NCBI GenBank assembly: GCA_964604195.1
Contig: CAZRXW010000001.1
Span: 2,358-66,357 of the forward strand
Direction: 5' to 3'
Length of the DNA stretch: 64,000 nt
Origin: an uncultured Bdellovibrionales bacterium
GTDB taxonomy: Bacteria > Patescibacteriota > Minisyncoccia > Moranbacterales > UBA1568
Notes under the pieces: model-generated
Told to the model about the DNA's origin: nothing
What the model saw: only the letters and a program-made list of their open reading frames with translations
Databases searched by the model: none
In this document: one piece after another, positions 1,641-64,000 of the stretch
Numbering within the stretch: position 1 is the first letter of the stretch
Layout of the letters: each line of letters begins with the position of its first letter
Position numbers and translations under genes: made by a program

Positions 1641-2340
1641 TTACAAAACAGGTTGGACTACTGCGCTACGGTGTGGAAAGTCCGGACATCGACCCTCTCA
1701 TTTTTGGAGAGGGAAGGGTAGTGGGTAACGCCCACACGTCGTGAGACGCGAGGTGCGAGCAGAGACGCTCATGGAATGAGAATTTCAGAGCCCTTGTCTT
1801 TGACAAGGTGAGTCCTCGTAGTGATATGAGGGGTGAAACGGCTAAATCCTTACTTCGATGCAAGGTCGTGTCCCGCACCTTTTCAGGTTGATAAAGATAA
1901 TTTTGGTATATACCAGATGACCGTCTTTTTAGAGAGATGGTTGTTGGTTTACGAGTCTGAAAAGGTGCGGGAAGAACCGCAAAGATTTCTCTAGTAATAG
2001 AGAAGCAAGAGAAATAGTAGTCACCCCGCACCTTTTAGTCTTGAGAGAGTTTTATGTACTATATGTACTGAGGAGCAGGCAAAAAGATATTTTCTATATT
2101 GGCTGTACTGAAGATCTTAAGAAAAGAATTCTTCAGCACAACAATGGAGAGTCTCGAGCCACAAAGTCCGCTGCTCTTTGGGAGTTGATATATTACGAGG
2201 CTTATACTTCTTTAAGTTTAGCGAGACGTCGTGAGTTGAGGTTAAAACATCATGGAAAAGGTTTAGCTGAACTCAAAAAGAGAGTTATTGAAGACTAAAA
2301 GGTGCGGGGTACAGAATCCGGCTTATAGACCTGTTTTGTA
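1641..2340 (+). ncRNA. rnpB: RNase P RNA (bacterial type), ~700 nt with large ORF-containing insertion
   Basis: P4 5' strand GGAAAGTCCGGAC at 1675-1687. Universal GGGTAACGCC at 1723-1732. AGGGGTGAAACGG and CAAGG elements follow. P4 3' strand ACAGAATCCGGCTTA at 2311-2325. Terminal P1 pairing ACAAAACAGGT (1643-1653) with ACCTGTTTTGT (2329-2339). No protein-coding signal on + strand in 1560-2040. Confidence 0.75.
2041..2298 (+). CDS. GIY-YIG nuclease family protein (COG2827/YhbQ-like, 85 aa) encoded inside the RNase P RNA gene
   Basis: ATG 2041, TAA 2296-2298. N-terminal FYVLYVLRS...IFYIGCTEDLKKRILQHN matches the GIY-YIG motif pattern, followed by conserved R/E-rich helix (LARRRELRLK). Lies entirely in the loop of a 13-bp hairpin, CCCCGCACCTTTT 2024-2036 paired with AAAAGGTGCGGGG 2297-2309. 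Confidence 0.7.
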   Translation: MREFYVLYVLRSRQKDIFYIGCTEDLKKRILQHNNGESRATKSAALWELIYYEAYTSLSLARRRELRLKHHGKGLAELKKRVIED

Positions 2341-2372
2341 AAAGTGCTTTCAATTATTAGTTATTCAAGCTT

Positions 2373-4646: not shown

Positions 4647-6650
4647 ATGAGTACGCTCATCAAGTTGGTGCTGGTTGGGTGGCTTGTCTCGCTCTCCCAG
4701 TTCGCAGTGGCTGCTATGCCAAGTCTCAAGTTGCCATTCGATACGAGTGAACCCTGGCGGGTAAACAGAGGCTACGAGCAAGGCTGGTCTCACAAGGGGA
4801 AAGATCGCTACGCACTTGATTTTGCGTCTGGTGACTGCGATCGAACTTACGGCAAACCGATTCTGGCTGCCGCATCAGGAACAGTGAGGTCAATCGATAG
4901 AGTCGAGAAGCAAACCCCAACGGATTATCCTAGCTACGGGAACCAAATCATCATCGATCATGGTGACGGGTGGACGACACGCTATGCCCATCTGAGCGAA
5001 ATCGACTCCTCAGTCGCTGAGCATGGTGAGAGGCGTTTCGTCGTGCAGGGTCAGAAGATCGGTGAAGCGGGTGGGACGGGATCAGTTGAAGGATCGATGT
5101 GTACGCGTACCGATATCCCTGTTGGCGTCCTTGGAGTCCATCTTCACTTCGCCCTCTACTATAACGGTGATGGCGTGAAACCAGAGCCAATGAGTGGGTA
5201 CAGTGGATTTGCTGCTGAGACGTGGTATGCCTCCAACAACACCCAGCAATCCCCAGCCATGACCCAACCTGCTATCTCTTGTGTTTACGTGGCTGGAGAC
5301 AACCAGTTCTGCTGGAAGAGCGCCAATGCCACACCGGCCTCATGCGGGAAGGCAGTAGCGTGGATCCTCAACGACAACACTGCTCAGGTGTTGTACAACA
5401 AATCAGCGAGTGACTGCCCGACATACTGTACGGTCTCCAATAGTTACTGCAGAGATGTTTCCGGTAGCTTGAGTGTCGGTGGTTTCGGCTCCCTCTCCTC
5501 CTTCAACCTCAAGATCAACCGCTTCTGGGTGAGAGATGTAGCGACACAACTCGATTTGGTTTCAGGTGGTCACACCGTCCGTACTGGTCAAGCTCTTGAG
5601 GTGCGGCTTCAGCAAAAGGCGGTCAATGGCAATACCAACGACTACATGCGCCCCGGCAAGGATCGGGTCGAGACTGACCTTTACAACAGAGAAGACAGTG
5701 GTGACTGGCGTTTCCTTGGTCGGGAATACACCCAGGCTATCAACTTGCCGAAGGACGCTACCCACACCGAGCATGTGGTCTATACCGTCCCTCCTGGTGC
5801 TACGGAAGTGTGCTTCAAGGGGAAGATCGATGCCGAAGACGAAGCCTCCGAAAACAATGAAGGGGACAACTGGTCGCCGGTGGCCTGTTTCCGGGTCGAC
5901 AACAATCCGACGGTCAATTTCATTACCACCTTTATCGGCCTGACCAATACCCCGACCCCAGTGCCACCTGGGAGTGCTATGCGGGCCAGGATGGCCATCC
6001 GGAATGTTGGAACGACGGCACCTAGTGCTGCCATCAGGAGTAGCTACAGCTATCGACCACTCGGTTCGACAGGTCCCTGGATCCAAATCGCTGATGATGG
6101 CTCGGATCCATCAGATCTCGTGCCCAATCGAGATCACTGGGAGGAGACTCTTTCAGCGGTTACTGCTCCGCAAGTGCCGGGTTGGTACGAACTGCGTGGT
6201 TGCGCCGACTACCAGAACGCTGTCCTTGAATCGAACGAAACCGACAACTGTCTCACGACAACTTTTGAAGTCGCTGCCTACCCCGACCTCATCATCACCT
6301 ACATCGAGATTGATCCTTGGCCAGATCGGTCGATCCAGAAGGACAAGGAGCACCATCCTACCATGAAGATCAAGAACGTCGGTCCTGGACCGGTTACCTC
6401 GGGCATCCGGAGTGCCTACTACTGGTACGGACCCTCTACCGGAAATGTCTGGAGACTCATCGCTGACGATGGGACAGAAGCTCAGGAACTCTGCGCTGGT
6501 TGTGAGGTAACGGAAACCATGAGGAGTGGTTTCAAGGCTACCAAGACAGGAACTCACTACCTCAAGGCTTGCGTTGACTACCAAGGCAACCAACCTGAAG
6601 GAGATGAAGGAAACAACTGTCTTCAGAGTGCTCCCATCACGGTGAAGTGA
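4647..6650 (+). CDS. secreted M23 (LytM-type) metallopeptidase with C-terminal CARDB-like repeats; GC-rich gene
   Basis: Signal peptide (LVLVGWLVSLSQFAVAA). M23 motifs (YALDFA..G.PILAAASGTV, IIIDHGDGWTTRYAHLSEI, GQKIG.AGGTG, LHFALY). Three C-terminal repeats carrying NETDNCL / EGDNWSP / EGDEGNNCL motifs typical of CARDB/adhesin-like beta-sandwich domains. GC and GC3 are clearly higher than flanking genes. Confidence 0.8.
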   Translation: MSTLIKLVLVGWLVSLSQFAVAAMPSLKLPFDTSEPWRVNRGYEQGWSHKGKDRYALDFASGDCDRTYGKPILAAASGTVRSIDRVEKQTPTDYPSYGNQIIIDHGDGWTTRYAHLSEIDSSVAEHGERRFVVQGQKIGEAGGTGSVEGSMCTRTDIPVGVLGVHLHFALYYNGDGVKPEPMSGYSGFAAETWYASNNTQQSPAMTQPAISCVYVAGDNQFCWKSANATPASCGKAVAWILNDNTAQVLYNKSASDCPTYCTVSNSYCRDVSGSLSVGGFGSLSSFNLKINRFWVRDVATQLDLVSGGHTVRTGQALEVRLQQKAVNGNTNDYMRPGKDRVETDLYNREDSGDWRFLGREYTQAINLPKDATHTEHVVYTVPPGATEVCFKGKIDAEDEASENNEGDNWSPVACFRVDNNPTVNFITTFIGLTNTPTPVPPGSAMRARMAIRNVGTTAPSAAIRSSYSYRPLGSTGPWIQIADDGSDPSDLVPNRDHWEETLSAVTAPQVPGWYELRGCADYQNAVLESNETDNCLTTTFEVAAYPDLIITYIEIDPWPDRSIQKDKEHHPTMKIKNVGPGPVTSGIRSAYYWYGPSTGNVWRLIADDGTEAQELCAGCEVTETMRSGFKATKTGTHYLKACVDYQGNQPEGDEGNNCLQSAPITVK

Positions 6651-50613: not shown

Positions 50614-52128
50614 ATGACATATATATTTGGATCTATGCGTGAAGATATTCTTGAAACGAAACGTGAAAAGCTGACCAAACTGATAGAGGCTCGTGGCACG
50701 GCGTATCCTGAAAAGGCTGAACGTACTCATGAAGTGAGTCAGCTGCTGGATCAGTTTGATGCCCTCAATGGCACTGAAGAAAAAGTATCCATAGTTGGGC
50801 GAGTACGATCACTTCGAGTAATGGGCAAGATCGCTTTTGCTCATATTGAAGATGGGACGGGCAAGATGCAGGGATTTTTTTCTGAAGAAATGCTCGCACC
50901 TGTTGAGATGCCGAGTGATAAAAGTTCTTTTGCGCTTTTTAAAGAAACAGTTGAAATTGGAGATTTTCTTTCTATTACCGGAACAGTTTTTGAAACGAAT
51001 CAAAAGGAAAAAAGTATTCGGGTAGAGACATGGCAGATGCTTTCCAAATCTCTCTTGCCACTTCCGGCTGAATTTTATGGACTCAAGGACGAAGAGCAGC
51101 TTCTTCGGAGGCGCTATCTTGATCTCGTCATGAATTCCGAAACTCGTGAACTGTTCCGAAAGAAAAATAAATTTTGGCAGACGGTGCGGCAGTATCTCTC
51201 AAAGGAAGACTTTCTTGAAGTGCAAACCCCGGTTCTCGAACATATCCCCGGTGGAGCTGAGGCTGAACCATTTGTGACGCATCACAATGCTCTCAATCAG
51301 GATTTCTATCTACGTATTTCGCTGGAGCTTCCGCTGAAGAGGTTACTGGTTGGCGGATATGAACGGGTGTTTGAAATTGGTCGGGTATTCCGCAATGAGG
51401 GTATCGATCGAGAGCATCTTCAGGAGTTTGATCACATGGAGTTTTATTGCGCCTATACTGATTTTGAAACTGGCTGTGCCATGGTTGAAGATCTCTATCG
51501 AGAGGTCGTACGTTCAGTGGCAGGCGAGGCGCTGGTAACTACTTTTGAGGGAGAAACAATCAATTGGAGCAAGCCCTTTCCTCGAGTTGATTATTTTACC
51601 GAGTTCAAGCTCGAAACGGGTATTGATCTTTCCGGTGAAGTAACCGTCGAAATGCTCCGAGCTAAAGCTGATAAGCTTCATATCAAGTACGAACTGAATG
51701 CTGGGAAGGGACGACTTATTGATACGATTTATAAGAAAACAGTACGACAGAAACTTATCCAACCCTGCATTCTTGTGGGTCATCCGGTGGAGGTGTCGCC
51801 CCTGGCCAAGCTTGATCCTAAGAATTCTCGTCGGACGCTTCGGATGCAGCCGATTGCCGGGAAGAGCGAACTGGGGAACGGATTTGCCGAACTTAATGAT
51901 CCGATTGACCAGCGAGCTCGGTTTGAGGCACAGATGAAACTTCGTGAAGCAGGCGATCATGAGGCACAGATGATTGATGAAGATTTTCTGGAGGCACTTG
52001 AATATGGTATGCCACCTGCTTTTGGTTTTGGCATGAGTGAGCGACTCTTTGCGATTCTTATGGATCGTTCTATCCGTGAGACAGTCATTTTCCCGCCGAT
52101 GAAGAGCTTGTCAGGGGAGGGAAAGTAG
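50614..52128 (+). CDS. lysS: lysine--tRNA ligase (class II)
   Basis: OB anticodon-binding domain. Motif 2 FRNEGIDREHLQEFDHMEFY. Motif 3 region GFGMSERL. ATG 50614. Confidence 0.9.
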   Translation: MTYIFGSMREDILETKREKLTKLIEARGTAYPEKAERTHEVSQLLDQFDALNGTEEKVSIVGRVRSLRVMGKIAFAHIEDGTGKMQGFFSEEMLAPVEMPSDKSSFALFKETVEIGDFLSITGTVFETNQKEKSIRVETWQMLSKSLLPLPAEFYGLKDEEQLLRRRYLDLVMNSETRELFRKKNKFWQTVRQYLSKEDFLEVQTPVLEHIPGGAEAEPFVTHHNALNQDFYLRISLELPLKRLLVGGYERVFEIGRVFRNEGIDREHLQEFDHMEFYCAYTDFETGCAMVEDLYREVVRSVAGEALVTTFEGETINWSKPFPRVDYFTEFKLETGIDLSGEVTVEMLRAKADKLHIKYELNAGKGRLIDTIYKKTVRQKLIQPCILVGHPVEVSPLAKLDPKNSRRTLRMQPIAGKSELGNGFAELNDPIDQRARFEAQMKLREAGDHEAQMIDEDFLEALEYGMPPAFGFGMSERLFAILMDRSIRETVIFPPMKSLSGEGK

Positions 52129-52145
52129 GATACAACGGGAAAGTA

Positions 52146-52219
52146 GGTCGCATAGTTCAGTTGGTTAGAACGTTCGATTCACATTCGAAAGGTCCCTGGT
52201 TCGAGTCCAGGTGCGACCA
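52146..52219 (+). tRNA. tRNA-Val (anticodon CAC), CCA not encoded
   Basis: Cloverleaf: acceptor GGTCGCA/TGCGACC; D arm GTTC-AGTTGGTTA-GAAC; anticodon arm TTCGA-TTCACAT-TCGAA; T arm CCTGG-TTCGAGT-CCAGG; discriminator A. Confidence 0.8.
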
Positions 52220-52279
52220 CAACAGTCTAACGGGGCAGGCATTGCAGGGGTCGGTGGTTCCCTGCCCGCCTCTGGAGGG

Positions 52280-52297
52280 GAGTCCAGGTGCGACCAC
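52280..52297 (+). repeat. 18-nt direct repeat of the tRNA-Val 3' end (GAGTCCAGGTGCGACCAC), att-like remnant
   Basis: Exact copy of 52203-52220 located 60 nt downstream of the tRNA, preceded by a degenerate T-arm-like hairpin. Confidence 0.6.
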
Positions 52298-52395
52298 TAG
52301 ATTTTTAGAGTAAGTACTGAGAAGTGGTACCCCTTGCTGTTTGGGCGTGTGGCCCACTTATTGTTTTTACAACCAATTTTTCAGTATTATTTTTT

Positions 52396-54714
52396 ATGAA
52401 GGAGCAGATACTTCCTCCATCTTCCTCTCCAGAGAGTGTTTCCAAAAAACAAGAGCTCACCACGAGTCGAGAAGAGCTCATGGCTGATAAGTTAGGACAT
52501 TATCAGGCGCTGAAGACATCAGTACAGGAGATATTTGGGACTGTAGAGATTCCTGAAAGTATTCGGGATAAAGTGCTTGGGCTTCGCCAGGAGATCAAAC
52601 AGGCGATTTCGGAATCAGAGTATCTGGATACGTTTGACGCTCGTATTGAAAAAGAAATTGCTGGACTTACGGAGGTGATATTGGCCTATCAAGTCCCTCA
52701 AGGGAATATTATGGGTTTGGATGAGCGTGCAGTGCAGAAAGAAGCTTTGATTGATTCTCTGCGACTGTATCTTGATTCCTATCGTCTTGCACATAATGCT
52801 GCTCACTTTCGAAAGAATGTGGCAGATCTTCAAGATGATATCCTCAAGGAGCATCAGGCGAGAAGTTTAAACTTTTATGCAGAGGATGAGAAACAATCCG
52901 TGTTAGCTGACCGTGTATTCAAAAAGTACGAAACTGCTGGATTTACCAAGGAGGAAATTGCTGAACTCGTGGCGACGTGCCATCTTGAGCGATTGGATGC
53001 ATTAGAAATTCAAGATCTAAAAATTATTGAGAAAATTGGCAGCATTTTTTCTCGTTTCATGGGTGGTGACAAGACCCGCTATGTTGGTCTCTCGGCGGCT
53101 CTGATGGTGCCGGCTGTGATTGAGGGTTATGCTCCCTCTGTTCTCGCAGATGCTTTTCGAGAGAATAGTATTGATTTGACGCAGGTAGGCTTGTTTGCCC
53201 TCCTGACTTCGGTGGCGGCTGGTGGATCAGCCTTTCTTCAAAAGCGATTCAAAGAATTTCTTGATAAAAATTTTGCTAAAGAAGATGGTTTTGGCCAGTA
53301 CATCGCCGAAGGGGTAGCTGAATTTCCTGGGACGGAAATTGGTACTTTTGGTGCCGAGAAAATAAAGCGTCGGTTGGCAGAGTCCAAATCAAGTTATGAA
53401 CGTATATTACGAAAAATAAGTTTTGATATTGTTCCAGCCGCTGTGACCTTGGCCACGAGTGCTGCGGTTTTGTATCAGCGTAGCCCTGCACTCGCTGCTG
53501 GTACAGTGGTGGGGACAGGCATGATGATGGCCGTCGATCATTATGTTCATAAAAAAGGGAAATTTTGGGATAAGCGTCGGCGAGCCAAGGAAGAAGCGGA
53601 GCAGGTAAGTGAAAAAATGAGCGAGTTGCTCAATGCTCATATGGAGGTGATCCTCTCTGGAGAAAAAGATCGTTTTGCTGCGGATATGGAGGATCTTCTC
53701 GCAAAAGAACGCGTGGCGCTCTCTGATAAGACTTTTATGGACGTGGTTCGTGACAGGGTCGGGGAAATAACGCAAATGGTTAATTTTGTTATCGCTGCCA
53801 TGGCGGCCTATATTGCTGGTGGCACTTCCGATAAGTTTATCGCAGCACTGATGTATTCGGGCCGGTTTCATGAAGGGATAGCCATGATGCTGAGCGCCAA
53901 ACAGGATCTATTAGATTCACTTCGTGACATCGTCCAAATGGAGGTCATGTTTAATGGGTATGCTGCCGAGGAGAAAGAGAAAGATCGAGTGGGCATGAGT
54001 TCACTCGAGCATCAAGATATCCTCCTTTCAGGTGTTGGGGTAACCTTTGGCGAGAAACAGATTCTTGATTCTATCGATGTGACTATCCCCAGCGGCTCGT
54101 TTGTTTCTCTTGAGGGTATATCGGGATCGGGAAAAACAACACTACTGAAAGTATTGGCGGGGTATTATCGACCAACCGCGGGCGAAGTGACTCTTGGTGG
54201 ACAAAACATGGAAAATCTGAAAAAGAGTGGTCCAGACTCTGTTTATAGTAAAATAGCGTATCTTTCGCAATTTCCTTACATAGTGGAGGGTGATGTTCGA
54301 TCAAATCTCACTTTTGGAATTCAGGGTGACGTGAGTGATGATGAGATTCAGGAGGTGTTACAACAGGTGGGGTTAAGCGCTCGATTTTCCAATCTGAGAG
54401 AAAAACTTGTTGGAGGACGAGGTGATATGGGAACTGCTTCTGGCGGTGAAACTTCTCGTATTGGACTAGCAAGGACCCTACTCAAGATGCGAAAAAATGG
54501 AGCCAAGATTGTATTTTTGGATGAACCAACCGCTTCAGTTGATGAAAAAACAGCTACGGAAATAGCCAAGATTCTTAATGAGGAGAAAAAAAGAGACCAC
54601 GGAGTAACCTTTATTGTTATTAGTCACGATAAACATTTTCGTGAACAACTTGAGACGACGCAGATAGTCCAGCTTGGACATGGAAAACTTATGGAGGATA
54701 GTCCTGCGGCCTAA
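52396..54714 (+). CDS. fused ABC exporter (6-TM permease + C-terminal ATPase) with ~230-aa N-terminal cytoplasmic extension
   Basis: C-terminal Walker A GISGSGKTT, signature ASGGETSRIGLARTLL, Walker B IVFLDEPTASVD. Six predicted TM helices between residues ~240-560. Likely start ATG 52396 (track 52324). Confidence 0.65.
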   Translation: MKEQILPPSSSPESVSKKQELTTSREELMADKLGHYQALKTSVQEIFGTVEIPESIRDKVLGLRQEIKQAISESEYLDTFDARIEKEIAGLTEVILAYQVPQGNIMGLDERAVQKEALIDSLRLYLDSYRLAHNAAHFRKNVADLQDDILKEHQARSLNFYAEDEKQSVLADRVFKKYETAGFTKEEIAELVATCHLERLDALEIQDLKIIEKIGSIFSRFMGGDKTRYVGLSAALMVPAVIEGYAPSVLADAFRENSIDLTQVGLFALLTSVAAGGSAFLQKRFKEFLDKNFAKEDGFGQYIAEGVAEFPGTEIGTFGAEKIKRRLAESKSSYERILRKISFDIVPAAVTLATSAAVLYQRSPALAAGTVVGTGMMMAVDHYVHKKGKFWDKRRRAKEEAEQVSEKMSELLNAHMEVILSGEKDRFAADMEDLLAKERVALSDKTFMDVVRDRVGEITQMVNFVIAAMAAYIAGGTSDKFIAALMYSGRFHEGIAMMLSAKQDLLDSLRDIVQMEVMFNGYAAEEKEKDRVGMSSLEHQDILLSGVGVTFGEKQILDSIDVTIPSGSFVSLEGISGSGKTTLLKVLAGYYRPTAGEVTLGGQNMENLKKSGPDSVYSKIAYLSQFPYIVEGDVRSNLTFGIQGDVSDDEIQEVLQQVGLSARFSNLREKLVGGRGDMGTASGGETSRIGLARTLLKMRKNGAKIVFLDEPTASVDEKTATEIAKILNEEKKRDHGVTFIVISHDKHFREQLETTQIVQLGHGKLMEDSPAA

Positions 54715-54745
54715 ATTTTGTGTATAGGCAGAAATACATGGGAGT

Positions 54746-55090
54746 ATGAAAATCGTCTTTTTGGCTGGGCCGTACCGCGGCCGTGGCGAACCCGGGGAAA
54801 TCGAGCGCAATATCGCGCAGTCGGCCAAATTTCAGGCGGCACTGGCGCATGCGGAAATGGTCGCGTATAGTCCCAATATTCATGATGCTCATTGGGAGAC
54901 CCTCAATGGCGGGAGTGAAGCGGCTGCCAAAACATTGCGTGCTTTTACCGAATGGGTGTTTGCAGAATGTGTGACAGCATTGGCGGTTATGCCTGGTTGG
55001 GAGACCTCGACTGGCACCCAAAAAGAAATTGCGTCTGCTCGAGAGCGAGGTATCCCGATTTTTTTTTCCTCCAGAATCCAGATGATCTGA
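54746..55090 (+). CDS. DUF4406 family protein (nucleoside 2-deoxyribosyltransferase-like fold); GC-rich
   Basis: MKIVFLAGPYRG ... MPGWETSTGTQKEIASARERGIPIFF matches DUF4406 pattern (MKIYLSGPM...LPGWE.S.GA..E...A...G.PV) common in (actino)phages. High GC/GC3. Confidence 0.6.
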   Translation: MKIVFLAGPYRGRGEPGEIERNIAQSAKFQAALAHAEMVAYSPNIHDAHWETLNGGSEAAAKTLRAFTEWVFAECVTALAVMPGWETSTGTQKEIASARERGIPIFFSSRIQMI

Positions 55091-55240
55091 CTGAACTTTT
55101 GGCTTGGTATCAATCGTAGGTATCAAATAGTTGCCCCGCACTCCTTTTCATGGTATGAAAGAGGGGCTCTTTGACAATTCCGATGACAATAAAGTCAAGG
55201 AAAAAATCTTCCACAACCCATTACATGATGGAGGTCAGCG

Positions 55241-56428
55241 ATGGCGCAACCTATCCGTAGTTCTGCATTTGATCATGGGCAAGGTCCTTTTGAGCCCCTC
55301 TTGCGGCGCTATGGCGCGAACTTTCATCGGCTCTACGGTGAGCAGGGGATGGCGGTACTCCGTCAAAACGGTTACATCTTCATGGGTGACAGTCGTACAC
55401 CTGGTACTCGTTGGGCGCCGCCCTGGAACCCTACCAGAGTGTTGACGGTACCGTACAACGGGAAGCCGGTTATCTGGCGCAATGAGTGCCCGCACAACAA
55501 GAAGCGACTGGTTCAACCGACGGCCATGCCTGTCTCGGTGAACTTTGGTCAGCCGATCGTCTGCGGATTCCACCACCTGAGTTTCAACCAAGCTGGAGTC
55601 ATTCGTGGCTGTGGCCGGATGGAACTAGCGGTGGGGGCTTTGCCCGTGGATCGCTGTGAAGAGTCACCGCATTACGAGTGGCAGGGGCTGGTGTTTGAGT
55701 TGGGCCAGAATGCCGATCGAGCAGAAGAGCGGCTACGCCAGAGCCTGGCTTTCGCTACGGAGGCAGGTGAAGGGCTGTTCGATTTCACCGACTACGTTCC
55801 TCACTGCTCGGTTGAGGCTCTCCAACGAGCTGATGCCCTTATGTCGATCGTCAATTACCTCGACATCCGGCATATCCCGAGTCACAAGGGCACCCTGGCG
55901 CCATTCGTCAATACGAACGACTACACGCATCGCGGGAGCGATGCCGGTGTGATCCAGTTCATGGGTCTCAATCCCAGCTTCCTCAGCGAACACCCCCTGG
56001 GAAAGCTCTATGTCCAGTCTGGACTCGGAGCTCTCAGGTACGGGGCAGCGTGGCTCACGACCCCAGAAGGACTCATGATCGAGTGGTATCCAGGGGTGCT
56101 GGTCGTCAGTCAGTGCTTCCCACATCCACTCGACCCGATGGCCTGTATCTTCCACCACCTGTTCTACTACCACCGGGCAGTACTGAGGCTCATGGATGAT
56201 GATCCAGCGAATCCGTACTCCTATGTTCGTGCCCACCAACCTGTCTTCAAGGGGACCGGTGACGAGGATGAGCTGTGGTGTAGCGAAGCCACAGCTAATC
56301 TCGTAGCGATGGCAGCTGAAGGTCGAGGAGGAGAAGAGTGGGGCTTCTTTGACCCGGCTCAGGAGAACTATGGCCGTTGGTACTACCAGATGGCTGAGAA
56401 GCGTCTTCGCGAACTGGTTGGATGCTGA
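55241..56428 (+). CDS. putative Rieske [2Fe-2S]-type oxygenase-like protein (tentative); GC-rich
   Basis: CPH-x22-CGFHH resembles the Rieske CxH...CxxH ligand pattern, though the spacer is longer than the canonical 15-17. Downstream DIRHIPSH His-rich segment could be a mononuclear-iron site. No close family recognised. Confidence 0.35.
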   Translation: MAQPIRSSAFDHGQGPFEPLLRRYGANFHRLYGEQGMAVLRQNGYIFMGDSRTPGTRWAPPWNPTRVLTVPYNGKPVIWRNECPHNKKRLVQPTAMPVSVNFGQPIVCGFHHLSFNQAGVIRGCGRMELAVGALPVDRCEESPHYEWQGLVFELGQNADRAEERLRQSLAFATEAGEGLFDFTDYVPHCSVEALQRADALMSIVNYLDIRHIPSHKGTLAPFVNTNDYTHRGSDAGVIQFMGLNPSFLSEHPLGKLYVQSGLGALRYGAAWLTTPEGLMIEWYPGVLVVSQCFPHPLDPMACIFHHLFYYHRAVLRLMDDDPANPYSYVRAHQPVFKGTGDEDELWCSEATANLVAMAAEGRGGEEWGFFDPAQENYGRWYYQMAEKRLRELVGC

Positions 56429-56579
56429 CCCTGCTTTCCTTGATGAAGGTCTCGCCCGGTGCAGCTGCACTGGGCGGGACATGCCACCATACCGATGCAT
56501 ATTGGTGTGGTGGCTTTGCTTTTTATAGGGGAATTCCCTATGCTATACATATTGCTTTTGAACCAAAGTCATTTTTCTT

Positions 56580-57973: not shown

Positions 57974-58049
57974 GGGTGCGTAGCTCAGTCGGTAGAGCAG
58001 TGGCCTTTTAAGCCAACGGTCGAGGGTTCGATTCCCCCCGCACCCACCA
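57974..58049 (+). tRNA. tRNA-Lys (anticodon TTT), CCA encoded
   Basis: Acceptor GGGTGCG/CGCACCC; D arm GCTC-AGTCGGTA-GAGC; anticodon loop CTTTTAA; T loop TTCGATT; 3' ACCA. Confidence 0.8.
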
Positions 58050-58069: not shown

Positions 58070-58130
58070 CTTTTAAGCCAACGGTCGAGGGTTTCCGTCC
58101 GAAGGAGGACGCTTCCCCCCCGCACCCACC
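58070..58130 (+). other. partial duplicate of tRNA-Lys 3' half with 22-nt hairpin insertion (tRNA fragment / att-like remnant)
   Basis: CTTTTAAGCCAACGGTCGAGGGTT (identical to 58005-58028) + TCCGTCCGAAGGAGGACGCTTC + CCCCCCCGCACCCACC (identical to the tRNA 3' end); no 5' half present. Confidence 0.5.
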
Positions 58131-61917: not shown

Positions 61918-62763
61918 ATGAGGCTTGCTCCCTGGATACTGAGCTTGGCTATCGCTCTGCTTACGGGTTGTTCTTCTTTGCCACGTGATAGTGGCTTCGA
62001 AGTGCGGACCGTCGAGCCGATGGGTCGCCAAGATCCCTGGCAGAACCGTGCGATCAACCTCGCGCCGTTCACGCCGAAGGGTGTGGCAGTTCTCTATGTC
62101 CGGCTCCCGCAGCCGATACCGAGTTTCTGGCGACAGGAATTCGTCGACCCGGCACGGGTGTACGAAACGACCGAGGCAGGCCGCAAGGTTCGCCAACCGC
62201 TCGTACGAGAAGTCTTCCGGGCCATCGTCATGAGGAATGGGGTGACTCAAACTCATGACGCCGTGGTGGACCGCGAAGGTCGAGGGTTCCTCGTCTTCGC
62301 GCTGCTTACCGTAGCCGACACACTTCCGGGCCAGTCGCTCCTCATCCTGTCTTCGGACGGGAAATGGGGTATGACGAGCCTGGGAGAGCGTGTCGAGTTT
62401 CCTTCGGGTTTCGACCCGCGGGCAGTTCCCAGTGACTTCTTCGTCCAGCACCGCTCACCGATTACGCAAGTAATTCGGCTCGAGCCGGCAAAGGACGAGT
62501 ACGCCCGGCGTGTCCTTGATGGTCTTGCGCAAAGTTTCCCCAAGCTGTTCTGGCTGAGGGGGAAAGACGAATCCTATGCCGGGAAACCGGATGTGGCCGA
62601 TGTCCTTGCGCAATTCACCTCCCTCGAGGGAGTAGCTGACAAACTGCTCACCTGTACCAGTCTCAAGGCTGGTCCGGCGACGGCAGCAGCGCTCCCACTC
62701 GTCGCGACGCTCTACGGCATCCAAGCCGTGCGAGCGCTCAGCGTTGATGACTGCCTGAAATAA
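61918..62763 (+). CDS. hypothetical lipoprotein, GC-rich (~62% GC)
   Basis: Signal peptide with lipobox LTGC. Strongly elevated GC/GC3 versus the rest of the window. No motif recognised. Confidence 0.55.
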   Translation: MRLAPWILSLAIALLTGCSSLPRDSGFEVRTVEPMGRQDPWQNRAINLAPFTPKGVAVLYVRLPQPIPSFWRQEFVDPARVYETTEAGRKVRQPLVREVFRAIVMRNGVTQTHDAVVDREGRGFLVFALLTVADTLPGQSLLILSSDGKWGMTSLGERVEFPSGFDPRAVPSDFFVQHRSPITQVIRLEPAKDEYARRVLDGLAQSFPKLFWLRGKDESYAGKPDVADVLAQFTSLEGVADKLLTCTSLKAGPATAAALPLVATLYGIQAVRALSVDDCLK

Positions 62764-62899
62764 GGCAGAGAAAGGAGTCCGCTCATATGAGCAGCTCAAC
62801 TGTTTCAACCCGTTACCGGGACGAAGCGTGGGCTGCTCCTTGTGGCCCACCTTTGCTCCTGGATTCTTCAACTGAACCCATGCCCGAAGGAGGCACCAA

Positions 62900-64000
62900 A
62901 TGAAGTCAACTTCAAGAGTGGCAGCAGCAGCGGCCACACTCATCAACCCGCGAACGGTGATGCCTCTGGCAGCTATCGTTGCAGCGAGTCTCTTGGCAAC
63001 CTTCACCCAGGTGGTGAAGAGTGCTGGGCAGACAGCTTCAGCAGCCGCCAGTACTCCAGCCGTTCAGGCGTCGGCACCAGCTCGGGCAGCGAGTGCTCCG
63101 GCAGTTGCCGCGAGCACACCGCAGCCCCGGGCTCCGAAGCCTGCAGCGGTGACTACCACCGCTACCTCGACCGATGTCTACTATCTGACCCCCGGCAGTT
63201 CGCTGTCGGCAGCCTTCGGCAAGGGGTGGAAGAAGGTGTGTGACGCCAGTCACCTCCGCCAATGCGGAATCGTCCGACCGACGGATCCGCTGAGTGTTCC
63301 TGCCGACGTGAAAATCGTCGACGGGACCAAGCTGCGGGCGAAGCCAGCGGCTCAAGTAGCGGTCAAGCGTGCAGTGTCCAGGGACGCAAGTCCTCAAGCA
63401 ACGCGCGTTGTCCGCCGGGCAGTGATGCGGGAGCAATCCTGCATTACGCTCGGAGTGGCGCCGTGGAATCCTGATGGAGACCTCGCGCGTACTTTGGCGG
63501 GCATCGACCAGATGCAATCGCTGACGCCTGAGCAAAAGGCGCTGGTGAAGACCAAGGTCAAGGCTGGTGAATGGACGACGGAAAACGAGCTCGTTGGGAC
63601 GCAAGTCTTCGGCGAAATGCTCTACGCGGGTGCTCATTCAGGCAAAGCCCAATCTGTCCGTGGCAAGCCGCTCTGCACACCTGAACAAGGTGGGCAACCG
63701 GAAGTCATGAACACGATCGATCTGGGAGATGGGGTTCATTTCTCCCTCCCACGTCGGTGCAAGAACCCGAGCGTGTTCACACGCCCGATCGTTCCGCAAC
63801 CGCGACAGCCTGAACCCGAGTCGCCACCGCCAGACCAGCCACCGCCACCGCCAGACCAGCCACCGCCACCGCCAGACCAGCCCACAACTCCTCCAGTCGT
63901 GGCAGCCCCTCGGGGTATGTGCGACTTCGTCGATGTGGCCGGGGCACTGGGTCAACACCATGTGCCACGCCAGAACGGTGACAAGGCTAGCTCAGACTTT
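62900..64000 (+). CDS. secreted Ala/Pro-rich protein with C-terminal PPPPPDQ tandem repeats; GC-rich, 3' end beyond window
   Basis: ATG 62900 with strong SD GAAGGAGG 7 nt upstream. Frame (phase 2) is open to the window end; it is absent from the ORF track because no stop lies in the window. Signal peptide, then Ala/Ser/Pro-rich low-complexity region, several Cys, PPPDQ repeats. Confidence 0.5.
   Translation, partial: MKSTSRVAAAAATLINPRTVMPLAAIVAASLLATFTQVVKSAGQTASAAASTPAVQASAPARAASAPAVAASTPQPRAPKPAAVTTTATSTDVYYLTPGSSLSAAFGKGWKKVCDASHLRQCGIVRPTDPLSVPADVKIVDGTKLRAKPAAQVAVKRAVSRDASPQATRVVRRAVMREQSCITLGVAPWNPDGDLARTLAGIDQMQSLTPEQKALVKTKVKAGEWTTENELVGTQVFGEMLYAGAHSGKAQSVRGKPLCTPEQGGQPEVMNTIDLGDGVHFSLPRRCKNPSVFTRPIVPQPRQPEPESPPPDQPPPPPDQPPPPPDQPTTPPVVAAPRGMCDFVDVAGALGQHHVPRQNGDKASSDF
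63824..63880 (+). repeat. tandem 21-nt repeat (CCACCGCCACCGCCAGACCAG, 2 full + 1 partial unit) encoding (PPPPPDQ)n
   Basis: Direct reading of 63824-63880; also produces the WRWRW periodicity seen in the spurious minus-strand ORFs here. Confidence 0.7.

Follow-up and report, generated by a model that had tools for sequence, protein, structure and literature searches.

A hairpin-split partial copy of tRNA-Val in a Moranbacteria contig: a candidate scar of a SegB-like homing cassette rather than an integrase attachment site

What left a second copy of the 3' end of a tRNA-Val gene immediately downstream of the gene itself? The question is raised by a 64,000-nt stretch of contig CAZRXW010000001.1 (GenBank assembly GCA_964604195.1, positions 2,358 to 66,357 of the forward strand), the whole of which is called the window here. 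The LysS protein encoded in it places the window in Candidatus Moranbacteria/Moraniibacteriota, within Patescibacteria. Duplicated tRNA 3' ends are routinely taken as integrase footprints and are used to delimit genomic islands, and a sequence-only reading of the window had interpreted this one in the same way, as a trace of integrase-mediated integration or excision. We consider it probable, if only by a little, that the repeat is not an integrase attachment (att) site but the nuclease-less scar of a homing cassette with a GIY-YIG nuclease similar to SegB of phage T4, which would have replaced the resident tRNA-Val allele. Loci compared with the window are designated by L numbers, and the coordinates of the window features are collected in Table 1.

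The 18-mer GAGTCCAGGTGCGACCAC has two exact occurrences in the window, at 52203-52220 and 52280-52297, where none is expected by chance, and the direct repeat of the tRNA-Val 3' end was confirmed at both positions. No further copy was found in the 64-kb window with up to three mismatches, and none of 100 shuffled sequences gave any match. The same search, combined with blastn-short, revealed no other tRNA-Val pieces and no distal att copy in the window beyond 52146-52297. Only 59 nt lie between the two copies. Contigs of the same species from independent Logan assemblies are identical to the window over 52191-52400; the 18-nt repeat is therefore real and not an assembly artefact. As a separate observation, two independent Logan contigs of this species (L110 and L111) both begin inside tRNA-Val at about position 46, which corresponds to 52191/52192 of the window and suggests that the 5' half of the gene or its upstream flank varies among co-occurring strains.

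The second copy of the 18-mer is the end of a longer pseudo-tRNA. The segment 52240-52297 is a copy of tRNA-Val that is truncated on its 5' side: it covers positions 36-76 and contains a 19-nt insertion between T-loop positions 56 and 57. Its upstream part (52240-52260) contains the end of the anticodon loop, the 3' strand of the anticodon stem, the variable loop, the 5' strand of the T stem and TTC, and is collinear with 52182-52202 of the intact gene at 71% identity. The start-to-start spacing is 58 nt for this upstream pair and 77 nt for the 18-mer pair, from which a discrete 19-nt insertion at 52261-52279 follows. Analysis with blastn-short placed the upstream part closer to another tRNA-Val allele, with 20 of its 21 nucleotides matching the L024 type. 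Read from its sequence, the remnant is chimeric, being of type B on its 5' side and of type A on its 3' side (the two allele families are described below), with the insertion at the junction. Orthologues of the 52240-52260 remnant are present in L003, L014 and L016. Both hairpins of the sequence-only reading were found (GGGCAGG/CCTGCCC and CTGGA...TCCAG). Its degenerate T-arm hairpin proved to be a T arm, as proposed, but a genuine one that is split by the 19-nt insertion rather than degenerate. The T-stem halves of the pseudo-copy do not pair (GGTGG at 52253-52257 versus CCAGG in the second 18-mer copy). Positions 1-35 are missing, so that there is no 5' acceptor strand, D arm or anticodon. 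ARAGORN and Rfam call only 52146-52219, and the pseudo-copy has no complete cloverleaf; the repeat is thus not part of a second functional tRNA gene, an outcome that would have spoken against the sequence-only reading. Rfam searches at the gathering threshold (the window and seven loci) and at a permissive E-value (52100-52420) matched intact tRNAs only and no family on the remnants.

The spacer between the intact gene and the remnant contains a conserved trailer motif (Table 1), which in L003 and L014 forms the right arm of an inverted repeat around the intact tRNA (CCGTTAGAC/GTCTAACGG and CCCCGTTACAACT/AGTTGTAACGGGG, respectively); the window lacks the left arm. Inverted repeats of 9-15 nt abut the intact tRNAs that are nested in broken ones in L014, L083, L094 and L003, and may be either processing stems or the ends of an element. 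On the other side of the gene, 52119-52147 contains two copies of the 11-nt sequence GGGAAAGTAGG at a distance of 18 nt, the first covering the lysS stop codon and the second running into the first bases of tRNA-Val. Given homologous sequence in L001 and L002, this duplication is likely to be due to chance or to be ancestral.

Remnants of this kind recur among relatives. A 5'-truncated tRNA-Val copy lies 10-100 nt past the intact tRNA-Val in L003, L005, L007, L008, L012, L016, L017, L020, L021 and L030, and many of these copies bear GC-rich hairpins in the D loop and the T loop. Fragments from the 5' part of another allele precede the intact gene in L003, L005, L007, L017, L018, L020, L021 and L090. 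In L021 the outer tRNA is cleanly split in the variable loop with no sequence lost, and the intact tRNA is nested inside it. The close relatives L002, L004, L026 and L040 have no remnant. Within the window, the tRNA-Lys gene is followed by the same kind of remnant, in which a GC-rich hairpin, TCCGTCCGAAGGAGGACGC, replaces the T loop. In a survey of 96 tRNAs, 33 had a same-strand partial match within 400 nt. All 11 upstream pieces were 5' parts and all 27 downstream pieces were 3' parts (p = 8e-10; matches between neighbouring intact tRNAs are left out of these counts and some loci are mutual duplicates, so the p-value is only indicative). More than half of the downstream copies (15/27) start at positions 56-59. 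At about 40 loci, every partial copy is found at most 400 nt from the intact gene, and a full element never comes between the two. The window feature belongs to a widespread class of scars, present beside many tRNA genes of Moranbacteria and of other Patescibacteria, in which an intact tRNA is nested between leftover pieces of an older allele, with hairpins in, or in place of, loops and stems.

Several other candidates in these regions were rejected. The tRNA-Val(GAC) called by ARAGORN in L007 is a false call inside serS, and the additional tRNA-Val that the program reports in L020 is a remnant fitted to a cloverleaf. The hairpins are not a genome-wide repeat of the repetitive extragenic palindromic type: in a scan of all loci, such GC-rich hairpins were found only in tRNA fragments, apart from ordinary terminators and coding matches. 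Non-coding elements of about 85-220 nt were also noted past the tRNA terminator in L008, L092, L017, L023, L006, L051 (tRNA-Lys) and L060 (tRNA-Gln). They all end in the tRNA 3' end, copied in direct orientation, and have their own terminator beyond it; several (e.g. L023, L008, L092 and L060) start with the reverse complement of the T arm and acceptor 3' strand. An internal hairpin, GAATGC-GAGCG..GCGA-GCATTC, is common to several of these elements, which have no Rfam match.

The 19-nt insertion itself is shared. A nearly identical insertion is present in the T loop of the tRNA-Val remnants of L005, L008, L017, L081 and L090, and a scan of metagenome contigs with the pattern GGTTCCYTGCCCGCCTYKGGAGGGGA yielded 12 loci, in which it interrupts the T loop of remnants from the 3' part of tRNA-Val, tRNA-Thr(CGT), tRNA-Thr(TGT), tRNA-Ala(TGC) and tRNA-Gly(TCC). 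At the 11 loci with sequence on both sides the remnant adjoins an intact gene or another fragment of the same tRNA; the contig of the remaining locus (L085) starts at the pattern match, so that only one side could be read. Two of the loci, L082 and L083, are arrays in which every remnant retains the 3' flank of its own allele and the newest intact gene is leftmost.

The tRNA-Val allele at this site turns over among close relatives. Two allele families occupy the same position after lysS: type A (GGTCGCA...) and type B (GGATGAT, GGACGAC, GGACAAT and GGTCGCT...). The type A allele of the window follows lysS in 15 related loci, and in 11 type A relatives tRNA-Val is trailed by a hairpin-bearing homologue of the remnant. 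The two types interleave on the LysS tree. Sister genomes differ in their allele, as in L016 (A) and L014 (B) at about 91% nucleotide identity, L012 (A) and L013 (B) at about 89%, and the further pair L002 and L001. The remnant of L012 aligns with the intact type B tRNA of L013, which makes these two loci a before-and-after pair. Remnants were found at 12 of 16 type A loci versus three of 15 type B loci (p = 0.004); by this enrichment type A looks like the invading allele. The contig of L001 (87% LysS identity) ends inside its type B tRNA-Val, at ...GGTCGGTGGT.

At other tRNA genes, in arrangements that are complete, the scars come with a nuclease gene. An 80-amino-acid GIY-YIG open reading frame (ORF; family match to PF01541, E = 7.5e-18) lies between hairpin-bearing 5' fragments of tRNA-Gln and the intact tRNA-Gln in L048, and another lies between pseudo-tRNA-Lys copies and the intact tRNA-Lys in L064. 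A search with the L064 protein returned 74 homologues of about 85 amino acids, whose source names, where given, are Patescibacteria lineages. All eight homologues that were sampled (16 loci) map to genes for tRNA-Lys or tRNA-Asn, and the partial copies of the respective tRNA on their flanks contain GC-rich hairpins, either TCCGCCAGCTGGCGGA or TCCCGA...TCGGGA. In L098 the flank and tRNA positions 1-52 with a hairpin precede the GIY-YIG gene, which is followed by the same flank and the intact tRNA; in L095 the intact tRNA precedes the GIY-YIG gene, which is followed by the T arm to the 3' end and the same flank. A partial duplication with one intact copy thus accompanies the nuclease gene in L064 and L093-L108, and the tRNA-Val locus of the window has the same architecture without the nuclease.

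The window's own genome does contain a GIY-YIG cassette, as observed in the RNase P RNA gene (rnpB). Rfam family RF00010 matches this gene in two pieces (57 and 21 bits, below the gathering score), separated by an interruption of about 270 nt that contains a small GIY-YIG ORF at about 2041-2298 (phmmer E = 3e-12 against the GIY-YIG protein of L048). The inverted repeats CCCCGCACCTTTT and AAAAGGTGCGGGG form the borders of this cassette, and further copies of the motif lie at about 1874 and 1961. In L079 (9937-10287) a GIY-YIG ORF that is not at a tRNA lies between perfect 27-bp inverted repeats, GTCATTCCTGCGGAGGCAGGAATCCAG; this is probably another type of small mobile cassette.

The closest known system is SegB, a free-standing GIY-YIG homing endonuclease encoded in a tRNA gene cluster of phage T4. 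[quoted passage not shown] It also drives the amplification and duplication of tRNA segments (PMC13096335). In both systems a small GIY-YIG gene sits among tRNA genes; the T-arm target and 3'-end cut of SegB match the recurrent T-loop 56/57 junction, and its spread with tRNA genes matches the allele turnover among close relatives. The Patescibacteria proteins differ in being only about 85 amino acids long, with a catalytic domain alone, in being encoded on bacterial chromosomes rather than in a phage, and in that their cutting activity is predicted. GC-rich hairpins in partial tRNA copies have not been reported for SegB, and the nuclease gene is absent from the tRNA-Val locus of the window.

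In the mechanism that we favour, a GIY-YIG homing endonuclease targeting tRNA genes would cut the resident gene, and repair would then copy the nuclease gene into the site, along with a tRNA allele that is either resistant or complete. A portion of the resident gene would persist as a duplicate, disabled or protected by a hairpin. At the tRNA-Val gene of the window the nuclease gene would have been lost, or would have acted in trans, leaving the type A allele and the chimeric remnant, whose last 18 nt may be either the recombination junction or a later, young conversion tract from the intact copy 77 nt upstream. The patchy presence of remnants and the replacement of alleles among close relatives are as expected of homing with co-conversion, and the recurrent junction at T-loop positions 56-59 hints at site-specific cleavage of the nuclease-less allele. 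The linkage of GIY-YIG genes to scars at tRNA-Lys, tRNA-Asn and tRNA-Gln is a direct observation, as are the anatomy and recurrence of the scars, the polarity of the pieces, the allele turnover and the absence of integrases at these loci; we infer that this family would cut tRNA genes, that the Val scar would share the origin of the nuclease-linked scars, with the same GIY-YIG link, and that the hairpins would have a role in the mechanism.

Several points weigh against this mechanism. No GIY-YIG ORF was found at the tRNA-Val or tRNA-Lys loci of the window (52-58 kb), nor at any tRNA-Val locus among the loci examined. The nuclease sample is biased to one clade, since all eight proteins in it are related to a single tRNA-Lys-linked protein, and other GIY-YIG ORFs lie away from tRNAs (L046 and L079). 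DNA cutting is a prediction for every member of the small GIY-YIG family. The scan pattern GGTTCCYTGCCCGCCTYKGGAGGGGA included the T-loop flanks, and hence only T-loop contexts could be found with it. Homing leaves the origin of the hairpins unexplained, as well as the inverted repeats that flank some intact tRNAs (L003, L014, L083 and L094), and exact identity from the T loop to the tRNA 3' end would also be expected of the core site of a T-loop-type integrase.

A more specific version of the homing mechanism is tentative and clearly less likely than the general one. Here the elements would be an undescribed selfish cassette of Patescibacteria, comprising a minimal GIY-YIG nuclease and a tRNA allele that home into resident tRNA genes; the hairpins would mark the displaced piece, and the Val and Lys remnants of the window would be fossil footprints. 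The hairpins may have been made or selected so that the displaced piece is not re-cut, recombined with the intact copy or folded as a tRNA. If such a cassette exists, it would cause tRNA alleles to be replaced rapidly among close relatives. No published description of this tRNA-remnant arrangement was found in our literature collection, which is incomplete. GIY-YIG-encoding non-intron insertions have been described in rRNA genes of the candidate phyla radiation (PMC11270868), and self-splicing group I introns at position 35/36 in tRNA genes of Patescibacteria (PMC13011429). These are likewise insertions into structured-RNA genes in the same phylum, and the rnpB insertion of the window resembles the rRNA insertions; neither report mentions partial tRNA duplications or hairpin insertions. 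The Val insertion is not a group I intron, being 19 nt long rather than at least 200 nt, without an Rfam match and in a truncated host copy. Functional split or intron-bearing tRNAs of the archaeal type were also rejected, since the pieces lack whole arms (L005, L017, L081 and the window) and the 5' and 3' pieces often belong to different alleles (L014).

Among the alternatives, an exchange that needs no dedicated mobile element survives best, and we regard it as unlikely. Homeologous DNA acquired from relatives would replace the lysS-tRNA-serS region, with an anchor in conserved sequence on one side and an illegitimate join inside the tRNA on the other, and would leave partial copies; the 18-nt identity would be due to later gene conversion, and the hairpins to a separate small palindromic insertion that is tolerated only in dead copies. 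The mosaic of tRNA-Val alleles and of serS alleles (the latter with 44-49% versus 70-80% identity) among close relatives is in keeping with such an exchange, as are the flanks retained by each remnant in L082 and L083 and the B-type 5' part and A-type 3' part of the window remnant. Three observations are not predicted by such an exchange, namely the close association of GIY-YIG genes with partial copies at other tRNAs, the repeated occurrence of the junction at T-loop 56/57 and the clean nested insertion in L021.

That the two 18-mers are the attL/attR pair of a tyrosine integrase is less likely still, and we think it improbable. An integrase targeting the T loop and 3' end of tRNA-Val would have left an element now decayed to 59 nt, at a site that still serves as an island hot spot, and an attP of the form GGTGGTTC-insertion-GAGTCCAGGTGCGACCAC would be expected beside an integrase gene. 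The exact 18-nt identity, which runs from T-loop position 57 to 1 nt beyond the discriminator base, would fit, and so would the variable gene content between tRNA-Val and serS. The gene order PBP2-GreA-LysS-tRNA-Val-(0-4 kb)-SerS-tRNA-Lys-BNR-Frr is conserved among relatives, in most of which serS lies 100-300 nt after tRNA-Val. The genes between tRNA-Val and serS in the window are missing there in relatives, except that a DUF1937-like gene recurs in L002 and L028; same-species contigs have the cargo genes in the same order as the window. The suspicion that 52324-56476 is an insertion was therefore borne out, as the segment is absent from almost all relatives. The G+C content of the DUF1937 and Rieske genes (55% versus about 45%) also agrees with an imported island.

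The earlier suggestion that the repeat delimits this island is not supported: the cargo lies downstream of both copies, and there is no third copy near serS. Remnants occur without cargo (L005, L008, L012, L017 and L021) and cargo without remnants (L002, L023, L028 and L032), including the two loci with the DUF1937-like gene, and the pattern of empty and occupied sites expected of an att site was not seen among the relatives. No recombinase or integrase was found among the ORFs at 48-61 kb, the rest of the window not having been scanned, or between tRNA-Val and serS in any relative; to this extent the earlier statement that the window holds neither an integrase gene nor a distal repeat copy stands, the part on the distal copy without restriction. 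The mobility genes that do occur encode GIY-YIG nucleases. The 5' fragments upstream of intact tRNAs are not a product of 3'-end integrases, at about 40 loci a full element never parts the copies from the tRNA, and no match to the tRNA-Val 3' end or to the T-loop insertion pattern was found in viral contigs. The duplicated 3' end is thus a rearrangement scar at a tRNA gene, as first proposed, but its attribution to an integrase is not supported, for want of an integrase and in view of the position of the cargo outside the copies and of the 5' fragments upstream.

Comparison with known arrangements leads in the same direction. Tyrosine-integrase att sites share with this locus a direct repeat of the tRNA 3' end next to an intact tRNA and a variable gene region downstream, and differ in that here there is no integrase, 59 nt separate the copies, the cargo is outside, 5' fragments lie upstream and the copy is interrupted. 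The repeats distal to E. coli tyrT are 178-bp tandem units, each ending with the last ~19 nt of tRNA-Tyr; there too short copies of the 3' end of a tRNA gene lie behind the gene and no integrase is known to be involved, but neither a hairpin-split T arm nor allele replacement is known from them. [quoted passage not shown] The nested layout is similar, with a disrupted resident tRNA and a same-isotype tRNA within the inserted DNA, but that system relies on a tyrosine integrase with a core of about 10 bp and inserts an entire prophage. In the loci described here the pieces enclose no more than a tRNA, in some cases accompanied by a GIY-YIG gene.

Least likely of all, and very doubtful, is a functional RNA or DNA signal in the tRNA-like piece (for processing or termination of the tRNA-Val transcript, as a leader of the downstream gene, or as a decoy or immunity site against a tRNA-directed nuclease): the 19-nt insertion hardly differs from one tRNA or organism to another, the sequence is identical in independent assemblies, the piece always adjoins an expressed tRNA gene and the hairpin TCCGCCAGCTGGCGGA is conserved beside GIY-YIG genes, but the 80-nt stretch of spacer and remnant folds no better than shuffled sequence (z = +0.64), no Rfam family and no terminator-like site was found at the Val remnant, remnants are truncated at varying points and are absent from the four close relatives named above, and there is too little variation for covariation, with the T-stem halves of the window unpaired.

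For Patescibacteria, the rule that equates a duplicated tRNA 3' end with an integrase would mislead, as the duplicates are short, split by hairpins and tied to GIY-YIG nucleases and allele replacement. Hairpin-interrupted tRNA copies offer a simple sequence signature with which such events could be mapped across metagenomes. If the homing mechanism is true, it would carry the SegB paradigm beyond T-even phages into bacterial chromosomes, provide a testable route for the exchange of essential tRNA genes between streamlined uncultured bacteria and explain the trouble that tRNA finders and assemblers have at these loci.

Table 1. Features of the window discussed in the text, with the method of assignment where available.
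Feature	Coordinates	Strand	Method
Intact tRNA-Val(CAC), type A allele (GGTCGCA.../...TGCGACC)	52146..52219 (3' end 52219/20)	+	ARAGORN; Rfam RF00005, 72.3 bits
18-nt repeat, copy 1: tRNA positions 57-73 + discriminator base + 1 flanking base	52203..52220	+	
Spacer with conserved trailer motif GTCTAACGGGG (52225-52235)	52221..52239	+	
Pseudo-tRNA-Val, positions 36-56, type B family, CATTGCAGGGGTCGGTGGTTC	52240..52260	+	Repeat search + blastn-short
19-nt GC-rich insertion CCTGCCCGCCTCTGGAGGG between T-loop positions 56/57	52261..52279	+	
18-nt repeat, copy 2: 3' end of pseudo-copy, type A sequence	52280..52297	+	
Lineage-specific cargo, outside the repeat pair	52396..56428	+	Pfam
ABC ATPase fusion	52396-54714	+	Pfam
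DUF1937/DUF4406-like gene	54746-55090	+	Pfam
Rieske/ring-hydroxylase-like gene, weak matches	55241-56428	+	Pfam
Intact tRNA-Lys(UUU), second tRNA of the window	57974..58049	+	
Pseudo-tRNA-Lys: exact copies of positions 32-55 (58070-58093) and 61-75 (58116-58130)	58070..58130	+	
RNase P RNA gene (class A), broken near its 3' end by GIY-YIG cassette	1645..2341	+	Rfam RF00010

The ORFs at 48-61 kb encode PBP2, GreA, LysS, the ABC ATPase, the DUF1937-like and Rieske-like proteins, SerS, a BNR protein, Frr and an M50 protease. Other relatives have single genes of different kinds between tRNA-Val and serS: cytochrome d1-like, SDH protease, glucose/sorbosone dehydrogenase, DUF1360 and NUDIX. The G+C content of the window is 60-63% at 62001-64000, 55% at 5001-6000 and about 45% elsewhere. 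SerS itself occurs in two forms among close relatives, with 44-49% versus 68-80% identity to the window protein (L002, L003, L005, L010, L019, L031 and L062 compared with the other loci), which suggests that serS, adjoining the tRNA-Val site, has also been laterally replaced.

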